Part shown: positions 1,560 to 61,375 of the stretch, piece after piece | Layout of the letters: every line of letters starts with the position of its first letter | Position numbering within the stretch: position 1 is the stretch's first letter | Source: a virus | Reading direction: 5' to 3' (one strand) | DNA length: 64,000 nucleotides | Virus record (IMG/VR): IMGVR_UViG_3300046779_002349 | Span: 86,180 to 150,179 of that record | Program-made: the position numbers and the translations under genes | The notes under the pieces: generated by a model | Told to the model about the DNA's origin: nothing | The model's input: only the letters and a program-made list of their open reading frames with translations | Databases searched by the model: none

Positions 1560-2030
1560 TCATTGTGTTATGAATGGTGGTGTTTCTCTTCTGCTCCAAT
1601 AGTGTAAGTGCCTTTTCGCTACATTATAATACGATCTGTAGGATTGTATTGGGCACTCAGTTTTAAACTCATCAGGCATTGTTAGAGTGAATGGAGTAAT
1701 TCCGCTTTCCTCAAAAGATAGCCTATGCTTATTTTCATTAATAAATGGTAGTAATAGAGAAGAAGCGTGAACATTATCGCTACGATAAGTAAACTCTTCT
1801 CCTAACTTTGTTGCATACTCGATAACCCACTCTAGGTTATCTAAGCTTTTTCTTGCCCATATCGCACTCGGATGATTCTGATGGGTTTTTCGATACGGAG
1901 CCTCTATACCTTGTAAATGAAAAGCCGTACAAAGTAATTGTACGGCTTCCATCAGCATTTTCCCTACATGCCTGTCTACATGGTATCTTGCGTTTGTTGA
2001 CAAATCGTTGTCTAAGTAGAATAAGTTCAA
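1560..2030 (-). CDS. pyrimidine dimer DNA glycosylase / endonuclease V-like protein
   Basis: MNLFYLD...HVGKMLMEAVQLL...YRKTHQNHPSAIW...YRSYY motifs typical of the family. Confidence 0.8.
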   Translation of the reverse strand: MNLFYLDNDLSTNARYHVDRHVGKMLMEAVQLLCTAFHLQGIEAPYRKTHQNHPSAIWARKSLDNLEWVIEYATKLGEEFTYRSDNVHASSLLLPFINENKHRLSFEESGITPFTLTMPDEFKTECPIQSYRSYYNVAKRHLHYWSRRETPPFITQ

Positions 2031-18014: not shown

Positions 18015-21000
18015 AGTTTATTCGGTTCGATAAATTTTGTAATGGCTCTGTCCTGTAGATGTATTATAGGTAGAACATCTACCGATCTGCGTATTGGCAT
18101 ATAAACATGATCTACCAATGTTACTACTCTGTATTTGATTAATATGTTGTCCAGAAATGCGTCTTCTAAATTCGACAGCTTTTTTAAGCAGGAAATAGAT
18201 ATAGTGTTTCTAATTCCCCTAGAGATTGACTCAGTGTACTTTGCGATGGGGCAACAATTGATTGTTGGCATAAATGTAATTTTCTAATAGTGTTTCTACT
18301 TCGGATAGTGATTGACTAAGTGCGATTTGTGATGGGGCAATAATTGGTTCGAATAGCATATTACTCCAAAGGATCTCTGACAGTCTGAGTTGCAACCCTC
18401 GTGAAATATGTGTTCTCATTAGCTCCATGTGCTCGATGTGTATTCCTAATTGCATGTTATATATAATTTTAGTTGAATACTTTTGTGCAGGAATGATGTT
18501 CCACTAAATCCTCTAAATGAGAGAGAGTAGTGTCCAACCGGACTAATGATGTACTCATTATACCTTTGTATGTGCGTAGTGCTATAGTTTCGTGTAATGG
18601 GTCCTTCAAGTTTGCAACTAGTGTATTGTTTATAAAACTAGTTATGCGTATCCCCATTGGTGTGTCTGGGTAATTTATAAATATTGAGTTCATTGTCTAT
18701 GTAGTCTTCTAAAATACCACTACACTCCCGTAAAGAAGTACCTACTCTACCGAACTTATCGTCTATATTGTGGGCTTGTTCTAAACTAATCTTGCCGTAA
18801 GAACGGAACGTTAACTCCATGCTCAATTCGTTCATGATGGAACTAATGATATTTTTCTTGTGCAGAGTAGAAACATCATTAACTCTCCTGCGAATTCCTT
18901 TCTGTAATTTTTTCATTTATGTTGTGTAGCTCAAGTTCGTAACGGAAAACGAATAAGGAGTTGAATATTTTGTCCTGTAAGTTTCGCCTAAGTTGAATAA
19001 ACAACTCGTAATCCCATTCGTCATCCACATTCAACGCAGAGTAAACAGAATTTCTTATAGCGGAAATATTAGGCGCTTGTGCTACTACATTATCTATGTA
19101 TTTATGGCTCATCTCTTTGTGAAGTATGGTAAAGAATTTCTTCATTTATGGTTGGTAGGTCCCCGTCGCGAAAGAAAATAAACATGGTTATTTTGCACAG
19201 GCTAAGAGATCTACTCAACATAGTGCCAGGCCTACGTGCGATTTCGGTTGATTCTTTTGTATATTTATTTTTTTTTACTATTTCTTCATCGCATAATGTG
19301 TTCAGCACAGTTAGGCGGGTATTAAGAAGGAACATATCCACCGAAACTGTAAGTTTGTAATTTTTGTTACTCAATTGTGTAACAGGTATATCTTTCTGAC
19401 TCATCTCTTTGTGAAGTATGGTGTAAAGAATAGACTGTCTGCTAACGTGTCTAGTACCCAATCTAATGATGTTCTCAAATCTGTTTTTAACTCAAACATT
19501 AACTGCTCTGCTCGAAGTGTATCTCTATGTTTATAGTGAAATAAGAAATTTGTTTCTTGTGCAATAGGGGAAACTATTTTTACGCTCATCTTTACTGCGT
19601 ATCTCCCTAAGTAGTCTGATATATTATCTACTGGGTTACTCATTTATTTATTTCGTTAATAACTCTTCTTTCTGATTGCCGTATGTGAAAATCAATTATG
19701 CGTATAGAAAATTCCAACTTCTCCATTGCAAAAAATATATAAAAACCAATGTTTGGTTTTTGCTGTCTTATCTCTTTTCCTATTTGTTCGATTGTTTTAG
19801 GTATTATAATGGGCATTGGTTTATTTCGTTAATAACTCTTCTTTCTGATTGTCGTATGTGAAAATCAAATATACTTAGCGATAAAGTTAACTGAAGTGTT
19901 GCTAGAGATAACCTAATATCAATATATGGTCCTTCTGAGATAAATCGCCATCTCATATCTTCTATTTTTTTATTATACGTATCATGATGCAACTGTTCTA
20001 TCTCTTTTCCTATTTGTTCGATTGTTTTAGGTATCATAATGGGCATTGATTTATTTCGTTAATAACTCTCCTTTCTAGCTTGCGGACATAGAAATCGGCT
20101 ATGTTTAAGGAAGTATTTAACTTTCGCGTTAGCATCCACAAACGACGATCAATTACGCTTGTTTCTGCTGTAAACTCCCACTCTAAACAGTCTAATTTGT
20201 TGTAATAAGTATCATAATGAAGTTGGCGAGTTTCTATTGATATTTGTTCGATTGTTTTAGTCATAATCTGATAAAACTAAATTTAAGTTCTCCATCACAT
20301 CATAGCAGGTCTGCTCTAATGTCAAAACTATTGCATCCGTCGTTTCTACGCATCGAGATCGAGGAAAATTACCTACGACAAAGGGTACGGAAGTACCAGT
20401 CTGTAGGGTTCGTGCTTGATGAAAAATACTACCCCTTAAGTCTCTCGCAATAGTTGACACTTCGTTATTTAATGCGTAAACCGCCATGACTAATACATAC
20501 TGAGGTGTATATTACTTGTTTATGTTGTCAGTGCTCATCTTCTTTTCCTGGAAAGTCTATTTCATATAATAGATCATCAATGTGTTCTGATGTCTCTAGT
20601 GTGTGAACTGTTAGCCTCCAGTAAGCGGTCCAAGATAACCCTCTAGTTTTGGTGTGTATAGTTTTACTTACACGGCTATATATTGGGTTTATCAGGATTC
20701 GTTTTATCTTCATGTCTATAATATCTATACTCCTAGGTAGCGTGAATCTAGTGCTATATGTCATTGATTATTTTTCTGAATTGTTTTTCTATGATTCTAT
20801 AGACACCAGATTCAATACTCCTCACTAAAGGGTCGGCTACTATATTTTTAACTTGTAAAAATAATTTCACTTTTTCTGAGATTGCTATGTCGGCTAAATC
20901 GCAGCAGAAATCGGCGAGGGGCTTTTCTACATCATATAGCGCCAGTGCTATAGTTTGTTTATTCATGTGTAATCCATTGATCTATTAATAATTCTTCGTG

Positions 21001-36209: not shown

Positions 36210-36750
36210 TTTATTTTTAGTTTAAGTAGTTCTACTTGATAGTAATCTAGGGTGATACGATGCTCTCCGTCTTCAAACTCATGGAAATAGAATTCTCCTG
36301 TTCTTGGGTTCTCTAAAAAAGAGTTGCTGAACTTCCAAGGATTTCCGGTTGCTTTATTGATTCCGTTGTTCCACAAAGCTTTAGCTTTTTGCAGCTCGTA
36401 GAACCTAAGTGCCACGAATAGAATACATACAATTACTAGTGGTATAAGGAATACAATGCCTATGATTTTCAATGTCAGTGCCATACAAGGATATTTGTCT
36501 TGTGAAGTGTAATTAATGTGGCTAAGATAAAACCTATTGCTTGCCAAGCCCAGAAGCTTTTGTGGTTTAAAGATGGGCTATCATAGTGTTTGTCTAAACA
36601 CTCAACGTAAATTGCCAGGCTAACTAAAAAGCATAAAATGTACACAGCGATAAAAGGTATGTAGTGTGAGACTTGTATTTCCATAAGGTCTGGGAAGAGT
36701 TTGTTTTATTTTTTAGGATATGTCAATTTTTGGTTTAAAAAAAAAATATA

Positions 36751-36780
36751 AAGAGAGGGAGATTTTACTCTCCCTCTCTT
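36751..36780 (-). terminator. probable intrinsic terminator
   Basis: AAGAGAGGGAGA/TCTCCCTCTCTT hairpin with a T-run nearby. Confidence 0.7.
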
Positions 36781-36788
36781 TAATTACT

Positions 36789-37871
36789 TTAAGCGATCTC
36801 TGTGATGATGAGATCCCTTCCACGGAATCTCTCCTTAAGTGCAGTGACTAAGCTTTGTCCTGCTTCTGGAGACACGCCCTCAAAGTGGAGTACTCCCGTT
36901 GTTTGGTTCACCATGGACAAGTATGGCGCGGACGAAAGATTAGGGAACAGGCAAGCCATGTCATAAACCTCATACTGAGATTTATGCCACCACTCATACT
37001 GCGGACCCTGGTAGTTTTTGTAGCTATCTACAAGAGTCCCTTTTTCTTTGAACCTTTCAATACCTACCTTGCGGACGAATTCCGCTTTTACATCGGCGTT
37101 AGTAATGTTCGTGTACTTATCTAGATCAAGCTGCTCTTCTGGGGTCATGACAAGCCACTCAGGTACTGTTACTCCGTTGAGAGCAAAGATTCGGATATTT
37201 CCTCTCCCCGCATACTCAAAAGCTGGACCGTTCTCGCAATGAGGAAGCCCCATGTGCGCACCGTTTGGTCCTTCCCCTGGCTCACCCAACTTCATTACGG
37301 TCGGCTTCTGAGATACAATGGTATACTCAGGCAATGGGTAAACACAACCGAGTTCTGCAGTAGCAGCCCACTTGTTGTACTTCTCCATCATGTCCTCTGG
37401 GATTACCACCTTCAGGTAATTGAAGGCGTAGTCGTAGAACGCAAATGAGCTGGCATAAAATGACCCACACTGCCATGGAAGTCGGGTGTTCGGAATTTTA
37501 AGTCGGTCGGGATTTCCATTAAATACCTTGTCCAAGCCTTCTTCAATTGCCGCTTGATCAATAGGGTAGTTGTAATGGGTGATTAGATGGCAGGCAATCC
37601 AGGCTTCTACTGGATTGTCAACGATCAGTGTTGGTGTATTCGGATCGAGCTCGATAACCTCTCTAAACCCCTTCACAATCTCTTTGGTTCGAGCTGGGTC
37701 GAGTCTATCATTGTTACATCCAATTGCTGTCCATTTTGCAATATAGACATCTGCCATTTTAATTTGCTCTTCTGTGAGCTCGTCTGGTTTTACTTGTTCT
37801 GCTACTTGTTTAATTTGATTAATAGCCTCACTTTGCGGCTCTTGCATGTTGCTTGTGATTTCGTTTTCCAT
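36789..37871 (-). CDS. DUF6745-like protein
   Basis: LPHCENGPAFEY...IFALNGVTVPEWLV...ITNADVKAEFVRKVGIERF...YLSMVNQTTG..HFEGV. Confidence 0.7.
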   Translation of the reverse strand: MENEITSNMQEPQSEAINQIKQVAEQVKPDELTEEQIKMADVYIAKWTAIGCNNDRLDPARTKEIVKGFREVIELDPNTPTLIVDNPVEAWIACHLITHYNYPIDQAAIEEGLDKVFNGNPDRLKIPNTRLPWQCGSFYASSFAFYDYAFNYLKVVIPEDMMEKYNKWAATAELGCVYPLPEYTIVSQKPTVMKLGEPGEGPNGAHMGLPHCENGPAFEYAGRGNIRIFALNGVTVPEWLVMTPEEQLDLDKYTNITNADVKAEFVRKVGIERFKEKGTLVDSYKNYQGPQYEWWHKSQYEVYDMACLFPNLSSAPYLSMVNQTTGVLHFEGVSPEAGQSLVTALKERFRGRDLIITEIA

Positions 37872-37886
37872 ACGGTTAGTTAAATA

Positions 37887-37948
37887 GGCATGATTGCCAT
37901 ACGCTTGTGCGTTTCGGATTATATGCCGGTAATCCTCATCAGTGGCAA
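37887..37948 (-). ncRNA. type I hammerhead ribozyme
   Basis: TTGCCA-CTGATGA-GGATTA(CCGGCATA)TAATCC-GAA-ACGC(ACAA)GCGT-A/TGGCAA; the full core is present, and loop II GGCAT can pair with the 3' ATGCC. Confidence 0.9.
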
Positions 37949-37957
37949 GTTATAAAT

Positions 37958-37991
37958 AAAAAGAAAGAGCCACTTTTACGTGGCTCTTTCT
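37958..37991 (-). terminator. intrinsic terminator
   Basis: AGAAAGAGCCAC/GTGGCTCTTTCT hairpin plus T-run. Confidence 0.8.
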
Positions 37992-37997
37992 GTGACT

Positions 37998-38183
37998 TTA
38001 TTTTAGGCACCAACCGATGATTGCGCCTAAAATTAGTGCGACTAGAACATATATTGCTATGTTCCAAATGAACACAACCAAACCCCATACAGCCCCGCCA
38101 ATGAAGGCGAATGCCGAAATGAGGGTATAAATAGTAATGATCGTAAGGAAGCCGATTAGTACGTGCTTAATAAATTTTACCAT
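37998..38183 (-). CDS. small two-TM membrane protein (probable start 38183)
   Basis: Highly hydrophobic; ATG lies 6 nt after TATAAT. Confidence 0.65.
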   Translation of the reverse strand: MVKFIKHVLIGFLTIITIYTLISAFAFIGGAVWGLVVFIWNIAIYVLVALILGAIIGWCLK

Positions 38184-38189
38184 AACAAT

Positions 38190-38219
38190 ATTATATAACA
38201 CAAGCACCCCTATTTTTGC
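38190..38219 (-). promoter_or_regulatory. conserved phage promoter motif, copy 3
   Basis: GCAAAAATAG-GGGTG-CTTGTGTTA-TATAAT. Confidence 0.75.
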
Positions 38220-38297
38220 CGTTATTTTTTATGTATAAAATAAAAAAAAAGAAGCCGAAATTAATCGACTTCTTTTAGTGTTGAATTTATTAAACTG

Positions 38298-59536: not shown

Positions 59537-61375
59537 TTAGAACTTGCCTGTCTGCTTGATGTTTTCGCCGAAGCCTACGCCGACTGCAACTCTAGGAGCC
59601 CAGTGAATGTTTTCTTTAACATTAGTAGTTCCTGCTCTCAAGGCGCTATCCTCTAATTGTTTTTTAAGATATGATGTACTGAGACCTGCAAGCCAATCAT
59701 CGTTGTAGTGACTAGCTGTACGTAAGCGATCCATGTTTGGAGCAAATGGAGGTGGGTCCTCTGAAACTTCTAGCTCATTGAATCCCACTTCCTGTAACTG
59801 CTTTTGAATACTTGGAGTGATTCTAGTTCCTATCGTGTGCTCCAATGTATCTTTAGTGAGATACTTGTTCGTGGTCATTTGAATGGGTTTGACAACAGAA
59901 TTTTGGGGCTTCCATACTTTCTTAACCTTGTTGTAATTAATCGTGTCGTCAGCATAGGCATCTAGACCCTCAATTTCTTCATTGAGAGAAACTGTATCTA
60001 GTGTACCTCTTGCCACAATTTCGAGATTCTTTTTATCCGCATAGAGGCCTGAGTCTTTATAGATTTTTTGAATTCGATCTACCCAGTATTTTCTACCAGC
60101 GCCAAGTCCTACTTTTTCAACTACGTCGCGAGCATCAACAATGCCTTCCGACAAAGGTGTTCCTGCTTCTATGGTTTGTCCTACCTTTACGGTGAGAGGG
60201 TACCCAGGTTTTACGTAGTATTGTTTGTTATTAACAGTAACATTATAACCGCCTTGTGGAGCTTCTTCAATCTGGCTTACTTGCCCATCTTCATCAGATG
60301 TAATCGCTTTATGAATATACTCAGAAGGGCTTTGTACAAATTGGCTGAGGATAGGAAAACCACCGTACTCACCTTTTTGTGTAGCCTGACCACCAGTGTG
60401 TTTGGCCGAGAGCGCCCCTTGGGTCACTGGCTCGGACAAAGCATTTGCTGCAGTAATACCTATATGTTCGCCAATTTTAGGAAATCTTTTTTCAAATGTA
60501 ACTCCAACACATTGTGAGCATAGTCCATCTGCATTACAAGTAAGTGGTGATCTGGCTACAACTTTGTTTACGTTACTCTTTTTAAGGTCAGCAATAACTT
60601 CTCTGGTCAACAGTGTACCAGCCTTGAAGTTACCAGCATCTTTTGCAAGAACTCTGTTTCTCGCGGTATTGTCGTCGATGTCATAAGCTAAACCATTTTG
60701 AACTCCGCAATCTTTATCTGTAACAACAAGTCGAGCAGAGGCTTGGCTCAAAAGTTTTCCATAGTCACCACCTTTAGCAGTAGCCGCTTTTGTAGAAATT
60801 ACAGAAGCTCTAGCTCCGAACATACCTGCTGCAAACTCTAGGGGTCTTAAACCTTCAGCAAATGAGTTCTCAACAAACATGGGAACAATGTCGCCTTTTG
60901 AGTCAGCGTACAAACCTGGGGTAGTAAGCATAGCCTGCATCTGTGAGGGTTTTCCCCTAGCTCCAGAAATAACAGCATGACCAATTTTGTTGTTGGTTGC
61001 TTTTGCCCCTGCCATGGTATTTTTCAACATCATGTCATTATACTTCACCCAGATAGCTTCTCTGGCTTTTTTAAATTGATCAGTATTTCCGAGCTTTTGT
61101 TTAGCTGCGGCAATTTCGTCATTCATAGCAGCCAGTAGCAGAGGTTTATCTACTACTGGCTCAAAGTCTTCTAGTCCTAAAGTCTCGCCTTGAATGTAAG
61201 CAGCTTTAGCTCCCAATCTTCCTAAGTCGTGTGAAATTTTTTTGTACTGATCTGGGTAATTCGTATAGAGATCTACAAGGAAGTCATTTACGTTCGATCC
61301 AGATAAATCAGTTAATTTACCTCGCAACTCTGCGGGTACTATTTCGTCAACTAAAAGGTCAATTGCTCTTGGCAT
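59537..61375 (-). CDS. rpoC: DNA-directed RNA polymerase beta' subunit, C-terminal part (split subunit)
   Basis: SGARG, GLRPLEF...GARASVISTKAATAKGG (bridge helix), DCG, RSPLTC..GLCSQCVG, GEHIGITAANALSEPVTQGALSAKHTGG (trigger loop); no NADFDGD motif. Confidence 0.92.
   Translation of the reverse strand: MPRAIDLLVDEIVPAELRGKLTDLSGSNVNDFLVDLYTNYPDQYKKISHDLGRLGAKAAYIQGETLGLEDFEPVVDKPLLLAAMNDEIAAAKQKLGNTDQFKKAREAIWVKYNDMMLKNTMAGAKATNNKIGHAVISGARGKPSQMQAMLTTPGLYADSKGDIVPMFVENSFAEGLRPLEFAAGMFGARASVISTKAATAKGGDYGKLLSQASARLVVTDKDCGVQNGLAYDIDDNTARNRVLAKDAGNFKAGTLLTREVIADLKKSNVNKVVARSPLTCNADGLCSQCVGVTFEKRFPKIGEHIGITAANALSEPVTQGALSAKHTGGQATQKGEYGGFPILSQFVQSPSEYIHKAITSDEDGQVSQIEEAPQGGYNVTVNNKQYYVKPGYPLTVKVGQTIEAGTPLSEGIVDARDVVEKVGLGAGRKYWVDRIQKIYKDSGLYADKKNLEIVARGTLDTVSLNEEIEGLDAYADDTINYNKVKKVWKPQNSVVKPIQMTTNKYLTKDTLEHTIGTRITPSIQKQLQEVGFNELEVSEDPPPFAPNMDRLRTASHYNDDWLAGLSTSYLKKQLEDSALRAGTTNVKENIHWAPRVAVGVGFGENIKQTGKF

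Follow-up and report, generated by a model that had tools for sequence, protein, structure and literature searches.

A conserved, pseudoknot-stabilised type I hammerhead ribozyme predicted between a terminator-like hairpin and a DUF6745-like gene of a freshwater phage

What might a self-cleaving RNA be doing in the leader of a phage gene when a transcription terminator stands directly in front of it? The question is raised by a locus in the viral record IMGVR_UViG_3300046779_002349, which is 150,179 bp long, comes from a freshwater metagenome and has a CheckV completeness of 77%. The stretch analysed here, called the window, covers 64,000 nucleotides (positions 86180-150179 of the record). The original prediction, made from the letters alone, was that the minus strand of the window carries a complete type I hammerhead just behind a terminator. 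The ribozyme was expected to leave an mRNA with a 5'-OH end and a short leader, and it was suggested that it may process, stabilise or translationally unmask this mRNA. The anatomy described there holds: the stems, the core and the GUA triplet are all found where they had been placed, loop II (GGCAT) is complementary to the 3' ATGCC over 5 bp, the proposed cut and the 28-nt leader before the ATG at 37871 agree with the sequence, and a hairpin followed by a T-run is present just upstream. That the element as a whole is a complete type I hammerhead is borne out by the consensus, by an independent covariance model, by the pattern of conservation and by its fit to the hammerheads of phages.

The element (minus strand, 37948-37894) reads as a full-consensus type I hammerhead of 55 nt, and its parts are listed in Table 1. 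All fixed positions of the core, C3 U4 G5 A6 N7 G8 A9 and G12 A13 A14, are present. Published acceptance criteria ask for three helices round the core and for the pairs 1.1-2.1, 10.1-11.1 and A15.1-U16.1 (PMC3088659). In the window element the core-adjacent pairs are U1.1-A2.1, G10.1-C11.1 and A15.1-U16.1, and the three stems, of 6, 6 and 4 bp, are Watson-Crick throughout. Position 17, where any base other than G is accepted (H17), is an A, and the predicted scissile bond is 37900|37899, i.e. between A17 and U1.1. The topology is that of type I, as stem I is open and contains both the 5' and the 3' end while loops close stems II and III. A loop II pseudoknot was looked for as well, with a minimum of 4 bp to the nucleotides immediately past stem I, and one of 5 bp was found at an offset of 2. 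Taken together, the sequence features support the view that the window element is a hammerhead of the pseudoknot-stabilised phage type, for which self-cleavage is predicted.

Table 1. Features of the ribozyme locus, in window coordinates and in the order in which the minus strand would be transcribed
Feature	Coordinates	Strand	Basis or remark
Promoter-like motif TGTGTTATATAATATTGTT	38184..38202	minus	three minus-strand copies; invariant in relatives
Upstream gene, 61-aa hydrophobic (membrane) protein	37998..38183	minus	putative start
Intrinsic-terminator-like hairpin, 12 bp, 6 G-C, then T-run	37962..37991	minus	3' of upstream small gene; 13 nt before ribozyme
U-rich tract and linker	37949..37961	minus	links terminator hairpin to stem I; too short for a conventional promoter
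Type I hammerhead ribozyme	37894..37948	minus	stem I 5' strand to stem I 3' strand; sequence, descriptor, covariance model, MFE fold
Stem I, 6 bp, UUGCCA / UGGCAA	37948-37943 / 37899-37894	minus	sequence
Core C3-A9, CUGAUGA	37942-37936	minus	sequence
Stem II, 6 bp, GGAUUA / UAAUCC	37935-37930 / 37921-37916	minus	G10.1-C11.1 closing pair
Core G12 A13 A14	37915-37913	minus	sequence
Stem III, 4 bp, ACGC / GCGU	37912-37909 / 37904-37901	minus	A15.1-U16.1 closing pair
Loop II, CCGGCAUA; loop III, ACAA		minus	sequence
A17	37900	minus	cleavage-site nucleotide, triplet GUA
Pseudoknot 5' half, GGCAU of loop II	37923..37927	minus	complementary to 37891-37887; same in L023-L026
Pseudoknot 3' half, AUGCC of the 3' tail	37887..37891	minus	starts 2 nt past stem I; 5 bp with loop II
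28-nt leader of the predicted 3' product (5'-OH)	37872..37899	minus	ends at ATG 37871; without Shine-Dalgarno
Downstream gene, 360 aa, DUF6745 (PF20530)-related	36789..37871	minus	homology
Terminator-like hairpin, 14 bp, and T-run	36749..36782	minus	7 nt past stop codon of the 360-aa gene

A descriptor composed of the core, the three stems and H17 was run over both strands of the 150,179-bp record, and there is exactly one match in the whole genome, namely the window element. When 400 random genomes with this dinucleotide content are scanned, a loose form of the descriptor (stems of at least 4, 3 and 3 bp) gives 0.38 matches per genome, and a stricter one (at least 5, 4 and 4 bp, with G10.1-C11.1 and A15.1-U16.1) gives none at all. 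The 5-bp pseudoknot is equalled by 0.4-2.4% of random 14-mers drawn from the same DNA. The MFE fold of the 55-mer is the hammerhead fold (-14.2 vs -14.3 kcal/mol), and this is also true in contexts of 101 nt and 136 nt, in which the terminator hairpin and the three-way junction form side by side. A covariance model, termed R1, was built with six unrelated type I hammerheads of viruses as its seeds and scores the window element at 39.3 bits (rough E ~4e-12). This figure has to be read with the caveat that the pattern from which the seeds were taken has the core, stem III and the base of stem II in common with the window element. Over the whole 150-kb genome R1 finds nothing beyond this one element. 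The motif is more than a product of chance.

The original prediction had named the Rfam hammerhead models as a check, and this check turned out to be uninformative: no hammerhead model reaches its threshold at the site, and other full-consensus phage hammerheads are missed as well. At gathering thresholds Rfam reports only tRNA in the window. With relaxed thresholds over 281 nt the sole hammerhead family listed is RAGATH-1-hammerhead (RF03152), at 16.5 bits and E 2.5 against a cut-off of 56.3, and Hammerhead_1 (RF00163, gathering cut-off 34 bits) gives nothing at the site at E<=10. As a control, the same scan was applied to seven viral loci with 16 full-consensus type I hammerheads, of which it reported none, and two twister ribozymes were found. 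Since those 16 phage hammerheads were missed too, the Rfam miss at the window site carries little weight, and with models so insensitive to the phage class we set Rfam aside as a deciding test. Both families resemble the window element in type I topology and have the same core. In RF03152 stem I is in addition preceded by a hairpin and an A/U-rich linker, and the model aligns the window core correctly; the two differ in that the upstream hairpin of the window is a terminator with a U-tract that does not align to the hairpin of the model. The current Rfam hammerhead models thus fail on the window copy as on all other phage type I hammerheads of full consensus that we tried, and annotation pipelines under-report phage hammerheads for this reason.

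The immediate surroundings of the ribozyme are compact. Downstream of the promoter-like motif at 38202-38184 there follow the 61-aa gene, a terminator, the ribozyme, the DUF6745-like gene and a second terminator. The motif (TGTGTTATATAATAwTGT, 19 nt) occurs in three minus-strand copies in the window, at 38202-38184, at 23679-23661 (9 nt before a tRNA gene) and at 4223-4205, with 0-2 mismatches, whereas 0.08 copies are expected. As the copies at 38202-38184 and 4223-4205 directly precede an ATG, leaderless mRNAs are suggested, and the mRNA of the 61-aa gene is probably leaderless because its ATG comes straight after the motif. Transcripts that reach the ribozyme likely originate at 38202-38184, where the motif would act as a promoter. 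The junction upstream of the small membrane-protein gene is a variable spot, since a closely related contig has an extra 144-aa gene between a 266-aa gene and the small membrane-protein gene (L026:3191-3625 vs window 38208-38297).

The terminator hairpin in front of the ribozyme has a stability of about -20 kcal/mol in context. A hairpin with a T-run within 70 nt upstream was seen at none of the 73 viral hammerheads surveyed, which are GC-richer than this phage and make an imperfect comparison. T-runs are found in many other intergenic regions of the genome, and recognisable promoters are rare. No promoter was recognised for the 360-aa gene in a consensus scan of the minus strand from the terminator to the ribozyme; the hexamer TATAAC at 37954-37949 was considered and not adopted, as transcription would then start inside stem I. 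The 360-aa protein has 219 homologues, most of them annotated as PF20530. It stays itself below the Pfam PF20530 model, which is reached by a relative of 52% identity (P0008). Judged by the hairpins on its two sides, the DUF6745-like gene is a single-gene unit closed by terminators at both ends. A tie between hammerheads and DUF6745 genes was also considered and rejected: in T4-like contigs (L027, L028) the DUF6745 genes abut the previous gene and have no hammerhead.

Conservation among relatives gives a further view of the locus. The closest relative of the downstream protein (P0001, 91% identical) is encoded on four metagenome contigs (L023-L026) with the same gene order, and the ribozyme is present in all four. 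Between the window and L023, identity amounts to 28/30 positions in the terminator hairpin, 13/13 in the linker 37949-37961, 53/55 in the ribozyme and 8/8 in the linker and tail of the pseudoknot, while 4 of the 14 positions of the remaining leader (37885-37872) differ and the third codon positions of the downstream gene are 65% identical (35% differ). A C-to-U change in the terminator hairpin of the relatives keeps the pairing as G-U. From the linker through to the tail of the pseudoknot, a span of 76 nt, there are two differences from L023, U7 to C and a C-to-U change in the first base of loop II. N7 is the single position of the hammerhead core that is free to vary, and the loop II change adds a U-A pair that extends stem II to 7 bp and yields the 6/7-bp geometry typical of the class. 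A third haplotype, from contigs of runs X3 and X4, has the loop change only. By our own binomial calculation, at most two changes in 76 nt at about 30% divergence have a probability of about 1e-9. As only 2 of the 76 positions have changed while nearby neutral sites are 29-35% diverged, the comparison indicates purifying selection on the ribozyme RNA.

The available relatives are too close for a compensatory double change, and none is found within the lineage. Across the class, covariation is seen in all five stem I pairs of the model, and 99% of the cells are paired, although the alignment was fitted to the model and these figures favour the structure. Distant orthologues were sought in several ways: the phage GenBank collection gave no match at the DNA or protein level, the viral contigs none by protein, and a lineage-specific pattern had no match in viral contigs and eight in metagenome contigs, all of them unrelated. 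The relatives found across these searches are only the close ones, L023-L026 and the X3/X4 contigs.

Several features of the genome bear on how the locus might be expressed. Almost all of the kept ORFs (176/179) lie on the strand of the ribozyme. GGAG occurs in 1 of 179 ORF leaders against a background of 6%, the leaders of the whole genome are A-rich and G-poor, and the leader of the 360-aa gene likewise lacks a Shine-Dalgarno motif. Genes without Shine-Dalgarno motifs and with A-rich leaders are a pattern known from Bacteroidota and some cyanobacteria, so the missing motifs give a hint to the host. A 612-aa protein (59537-61375, minus strand) matches the phage RNA polymerase beta-subunit families phrog_3015 (1.7e-16) and phrog_25354 (3.7e-38); because such a beta-like protein is encoded, the phage may rely on a polymerase of its own for transcription of part of the genome. 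The same genome also has a group I catalytic intron (RF00028, 89.2 bits, E 2.5e-21; L039:549-775, corresponding to about 20348-20574 of G000 C1, minus strand, outside the window), which adjoins large minus-strand ORFs.

For comparison, two pattern scans of viral contigs followed by the descriptor filter provided 75 distinct free-standing type I hammerheads, a sample with a bias, since stems II and III are partly fixed by the search patterns. In 44/71 of them the next ATG-led ORF begins 20-39 nt past the cleavage site, as it does in the window (28 nt). A pseudoknot of at least 4 Watson-Crick pairs between loop II and the 3' tail is present in 37/75, and in 34 of these 37 (34/75 overall) it starts 0-3 nt past stem I (Fisher combined p 1e-5 vs random tails). 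Several viral contigs (L047, L051, L048, L074, L064) have three to five type I hammerheads of full consensus apiece, round single genes. On another, 4.4 kb in length (L011), two twister-P5 ribozymes (1318-1377 and 1810-1867, minus strand) and two type I hammerheads (2313-2368 and 2627-2681) lie within 1.4 kb. As the class shares its spacing to the next start codon, the analogy points to the downstream message as the beneficiary of cleavage.

The reading that we favour, with a probability of roughly 0.6, is that the element is a functional, constitutively self-cleaving, pseudoknot-stabilised hammerhead that would serve as a protein-independent processing site for read-through RNA. Transcripts would start at the promoter-like motif and encode the 61-aa membrane protein, and a part of them would read through the first terminator; alternatively, the RNA might be supplied by a phage polymerase that ignores the terminator. 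The ribozyme would fold during synthesis, its parts following the order of transcription, with stems I, II and III forming and loop II pairing with the tail, and would then cut itself between A37900 and U37899. The upstream mRNA would retain the whole compact ribozyme and end with a 2',3'-cyclic phosphate. The downstream product would be a monocistronic DUF6745-like mRNA with a 5'-OH, the 28-nt leader and a 3' end at the terminator 36782-36749, and its fate, in terms of stability and translation, would be uncoupled from that of the upstream RNA. Such processing of read-through transcripts fits the anatomy of the locus. Several points speak against this reading: no Rfam hammerhead family reaches its threshold, an objection weakened by the 16 other phage hammerheads that Rfam missed; the close relatives offer no compensatory double change; the upstream terminator, which has no counterpart among the 73 surveyed hammerheads, should limit the RNA that contains the ribozyme; and a phage-specific promoter that we do not recognise could lie nearby, given the RNA-polymerase-beta-like protein.

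The three roles proposed originally, processing, stabilising and unmasking, are not equally well placed. Stem I and the pseudoknot take up positions -28 to -16, counted from the AUG. Once released, the leader can, according to the folding model, turn its first 13 nt into a 4-bp hairpin (GGCA-AUCA-UGCC, -4.7 kcal/mol) which holds the same bases, and the 15 nt adjoining the AUG are unstructured before and after cleavage. Translational unmasking is for these reasons weakly supported, and is the weakest of the three. The post-cleavage hairpin stands out in the window, where only 0.3-1% of control tails match it, and is weakly suggestive in 14 examples; as a general mechanism of product release or stabilisation we rejected it, since it is no feature of the class (Fisher p 0.96 in 75 hammerheads). 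We may also speculate, as a doubtful extension, that the hammerhead replaces a promoter as the maker of the 5' end. The locus would then be a promoterless cassette of terminator, hammerhead, gene and terminator, supplied with RNA by read-through alone or by a phage polymerase to which the terminator is no obstacle, and self-cleavage would yield a discrete, stable and translatable single-gene mRNA in a host that does not depend on Shine-Dalgarno motifs. If this were true, the locus would be an unusually clean natural system for testing the function of phage hammerheads, because one free-standing ribozyme stands before one gene.

The same anatomy can be read in other ways. A 5'-OH end guards an RNA against the 5'-monophosphate-dependent RNase E, and in the case of glmS it triggers decay by RNase J1. 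With this precedent for 5'-OH-triggered decay, a real ribozyme could as well exert negative or conditional control: the 5'-OH would be attacked by a host 5'-exonuclease of the RNase J type, or folding of the pseudoknot would depend on Mg2+, temperature or a factor, and with the two terminators this would hold expression of the DUF6745-like gene down or restrict it to certain conditions. Regulated hammerheads have been discussed (PMC3088659). Tight limitation is indeed suggested by two strong terminators that bracket a gene with no recognisable promoter, and two partners are open to the tail AUGCC, loop II in the active form and GGCA of the stem I 3' strand, the latter being the rare pairing described above. 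However, the active fold is the one of lowest free energy and the first to form as the RNA is transcribed, the class does not share the alternative hairpin, and flanks of 13 nt and 28 nt are too short for a ligand-binding or extra domain. We regard such control as unlikely. It is less probable still that the ribozyme serves the upstream gene as a fail-safe former of 3' ends, which would trim read-through RNA behind the terminator, give the mRNA of the small membrane protein a stable structure at its end in every case, and release the downstream message as a by-product. Cleavage by a hammerhead leaves a 5' product whose last helix is stem III, followed by a single unpaired base that bears the cyclic phosphate. 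Here the ribozyme begins 13 nt behind the terminator, and conservation extends over the terminator, the linker and the ribozyme as a unit, all of which would suit an upstream function. The constant of the class, on the other hand, is the spacing to the next start codon, which points downstream, and none of the 73 other hammerheads follows a terminator.

Two further readings are much more remote. The hammerhead could belong, as a single module, to some larger phage RNA that is structured or mobile, a thought that arises from an element containing CCGGGGAAUAAC which is conserved downstream of four viral matches (L004, L010, L012, L020 types). In L004, L010, L012, L013, L016 and L020 this element lies 3' of the hammerhead, a complementary sequence lies upstream, and the two are probably part of a larger phage RNA. 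The window copy differs from these CCGGGGAAUAAC-flanked viral hammerheads in being free-standing: the element has no match in the window at up to two mismatches, and with this flank motif absent we rejected the nesting of the window hammerhead in a larger phage RNA. The 13 nt to the terminator and the 28 nt to the ATG leave no room for one, Rfam and R1 find nothing else at the locus, and by descriptor and R1 the genome has no second ribozyme with which an RNA circle could be excised. A place in such an RNA is therefore very improbable. Equally slight is the chance that the motif is accidental or decaying and hence inactive, for which one could cite that no Rfam family reaches its threshold. 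Against it stand the 400 random genomes without a match, the rough E value of R1, a pseudoknot at the class-typical position, and changes confined to tolerant positions amid nearby neutral sites that are 29-35% diverged. The preferred reading, processing of read-through RNA by a constitutive ribozyme, agrees best with this evidence as we weigh it.

It is interesting to compare the window ribozyme with systems in which RNA is cut at a defined site. At the RNase III sites of the T7 early genes and in the synthetic RiboJ insulator, a site-specific cut gives an mRNA defined ends whatever lies upstream. The window ribozyme would likewise give each cistron mRNA ends of its own. It is a member of neither group: the RNA would cut itself, with no host enzyme, and leave a 5'-OH and a 2',3'-cyclic phosphate.

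The closest parallel is provided by the phage hammerheads themselves. Intergenic hammerheads of phages have been described since 2011 (PMC3088659), and according to a 2019 review their role is still unproven (PMC6765202). Pseudoknots are found in all three hammerhead topologies, and other hammerheads depend on them for fast cleavage (Perreault et al. 2011, PMC3088659). In prophages hammerheads flank genes, and it was proposed that they process long polycistronic phage transcripts into gene-length mRNAs (PMC3088659). The window element shares with this class the identical core, loop-closed stems II and III with stem I open, the pairing of loop II with the sequence just 3' of stem I, and the position between two phage genes on the coding strand with a start codon close by; the proposed role, in which long phage transcripts are cut to gene-length mRNAs, is common to both. 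There are also differences. The window ribozyme does not abut the previous stop codon but has an intrinsic terminator before it (0/73 surveyed), it is the sole ribozyme of its kind in its genome whereas many phages carry several round single genes, and it has AT-rich stems and a leader without Shine-Dalgarno motif. It is a new, well-formed example of a class already described in phages, in a slightly unusual setting. It adds no new principle, but with a single free-standing ribozyme, a clear pseudoknot, natural variants at tolerant positions and a junction with two terminators it offers a tidy test case for this class.
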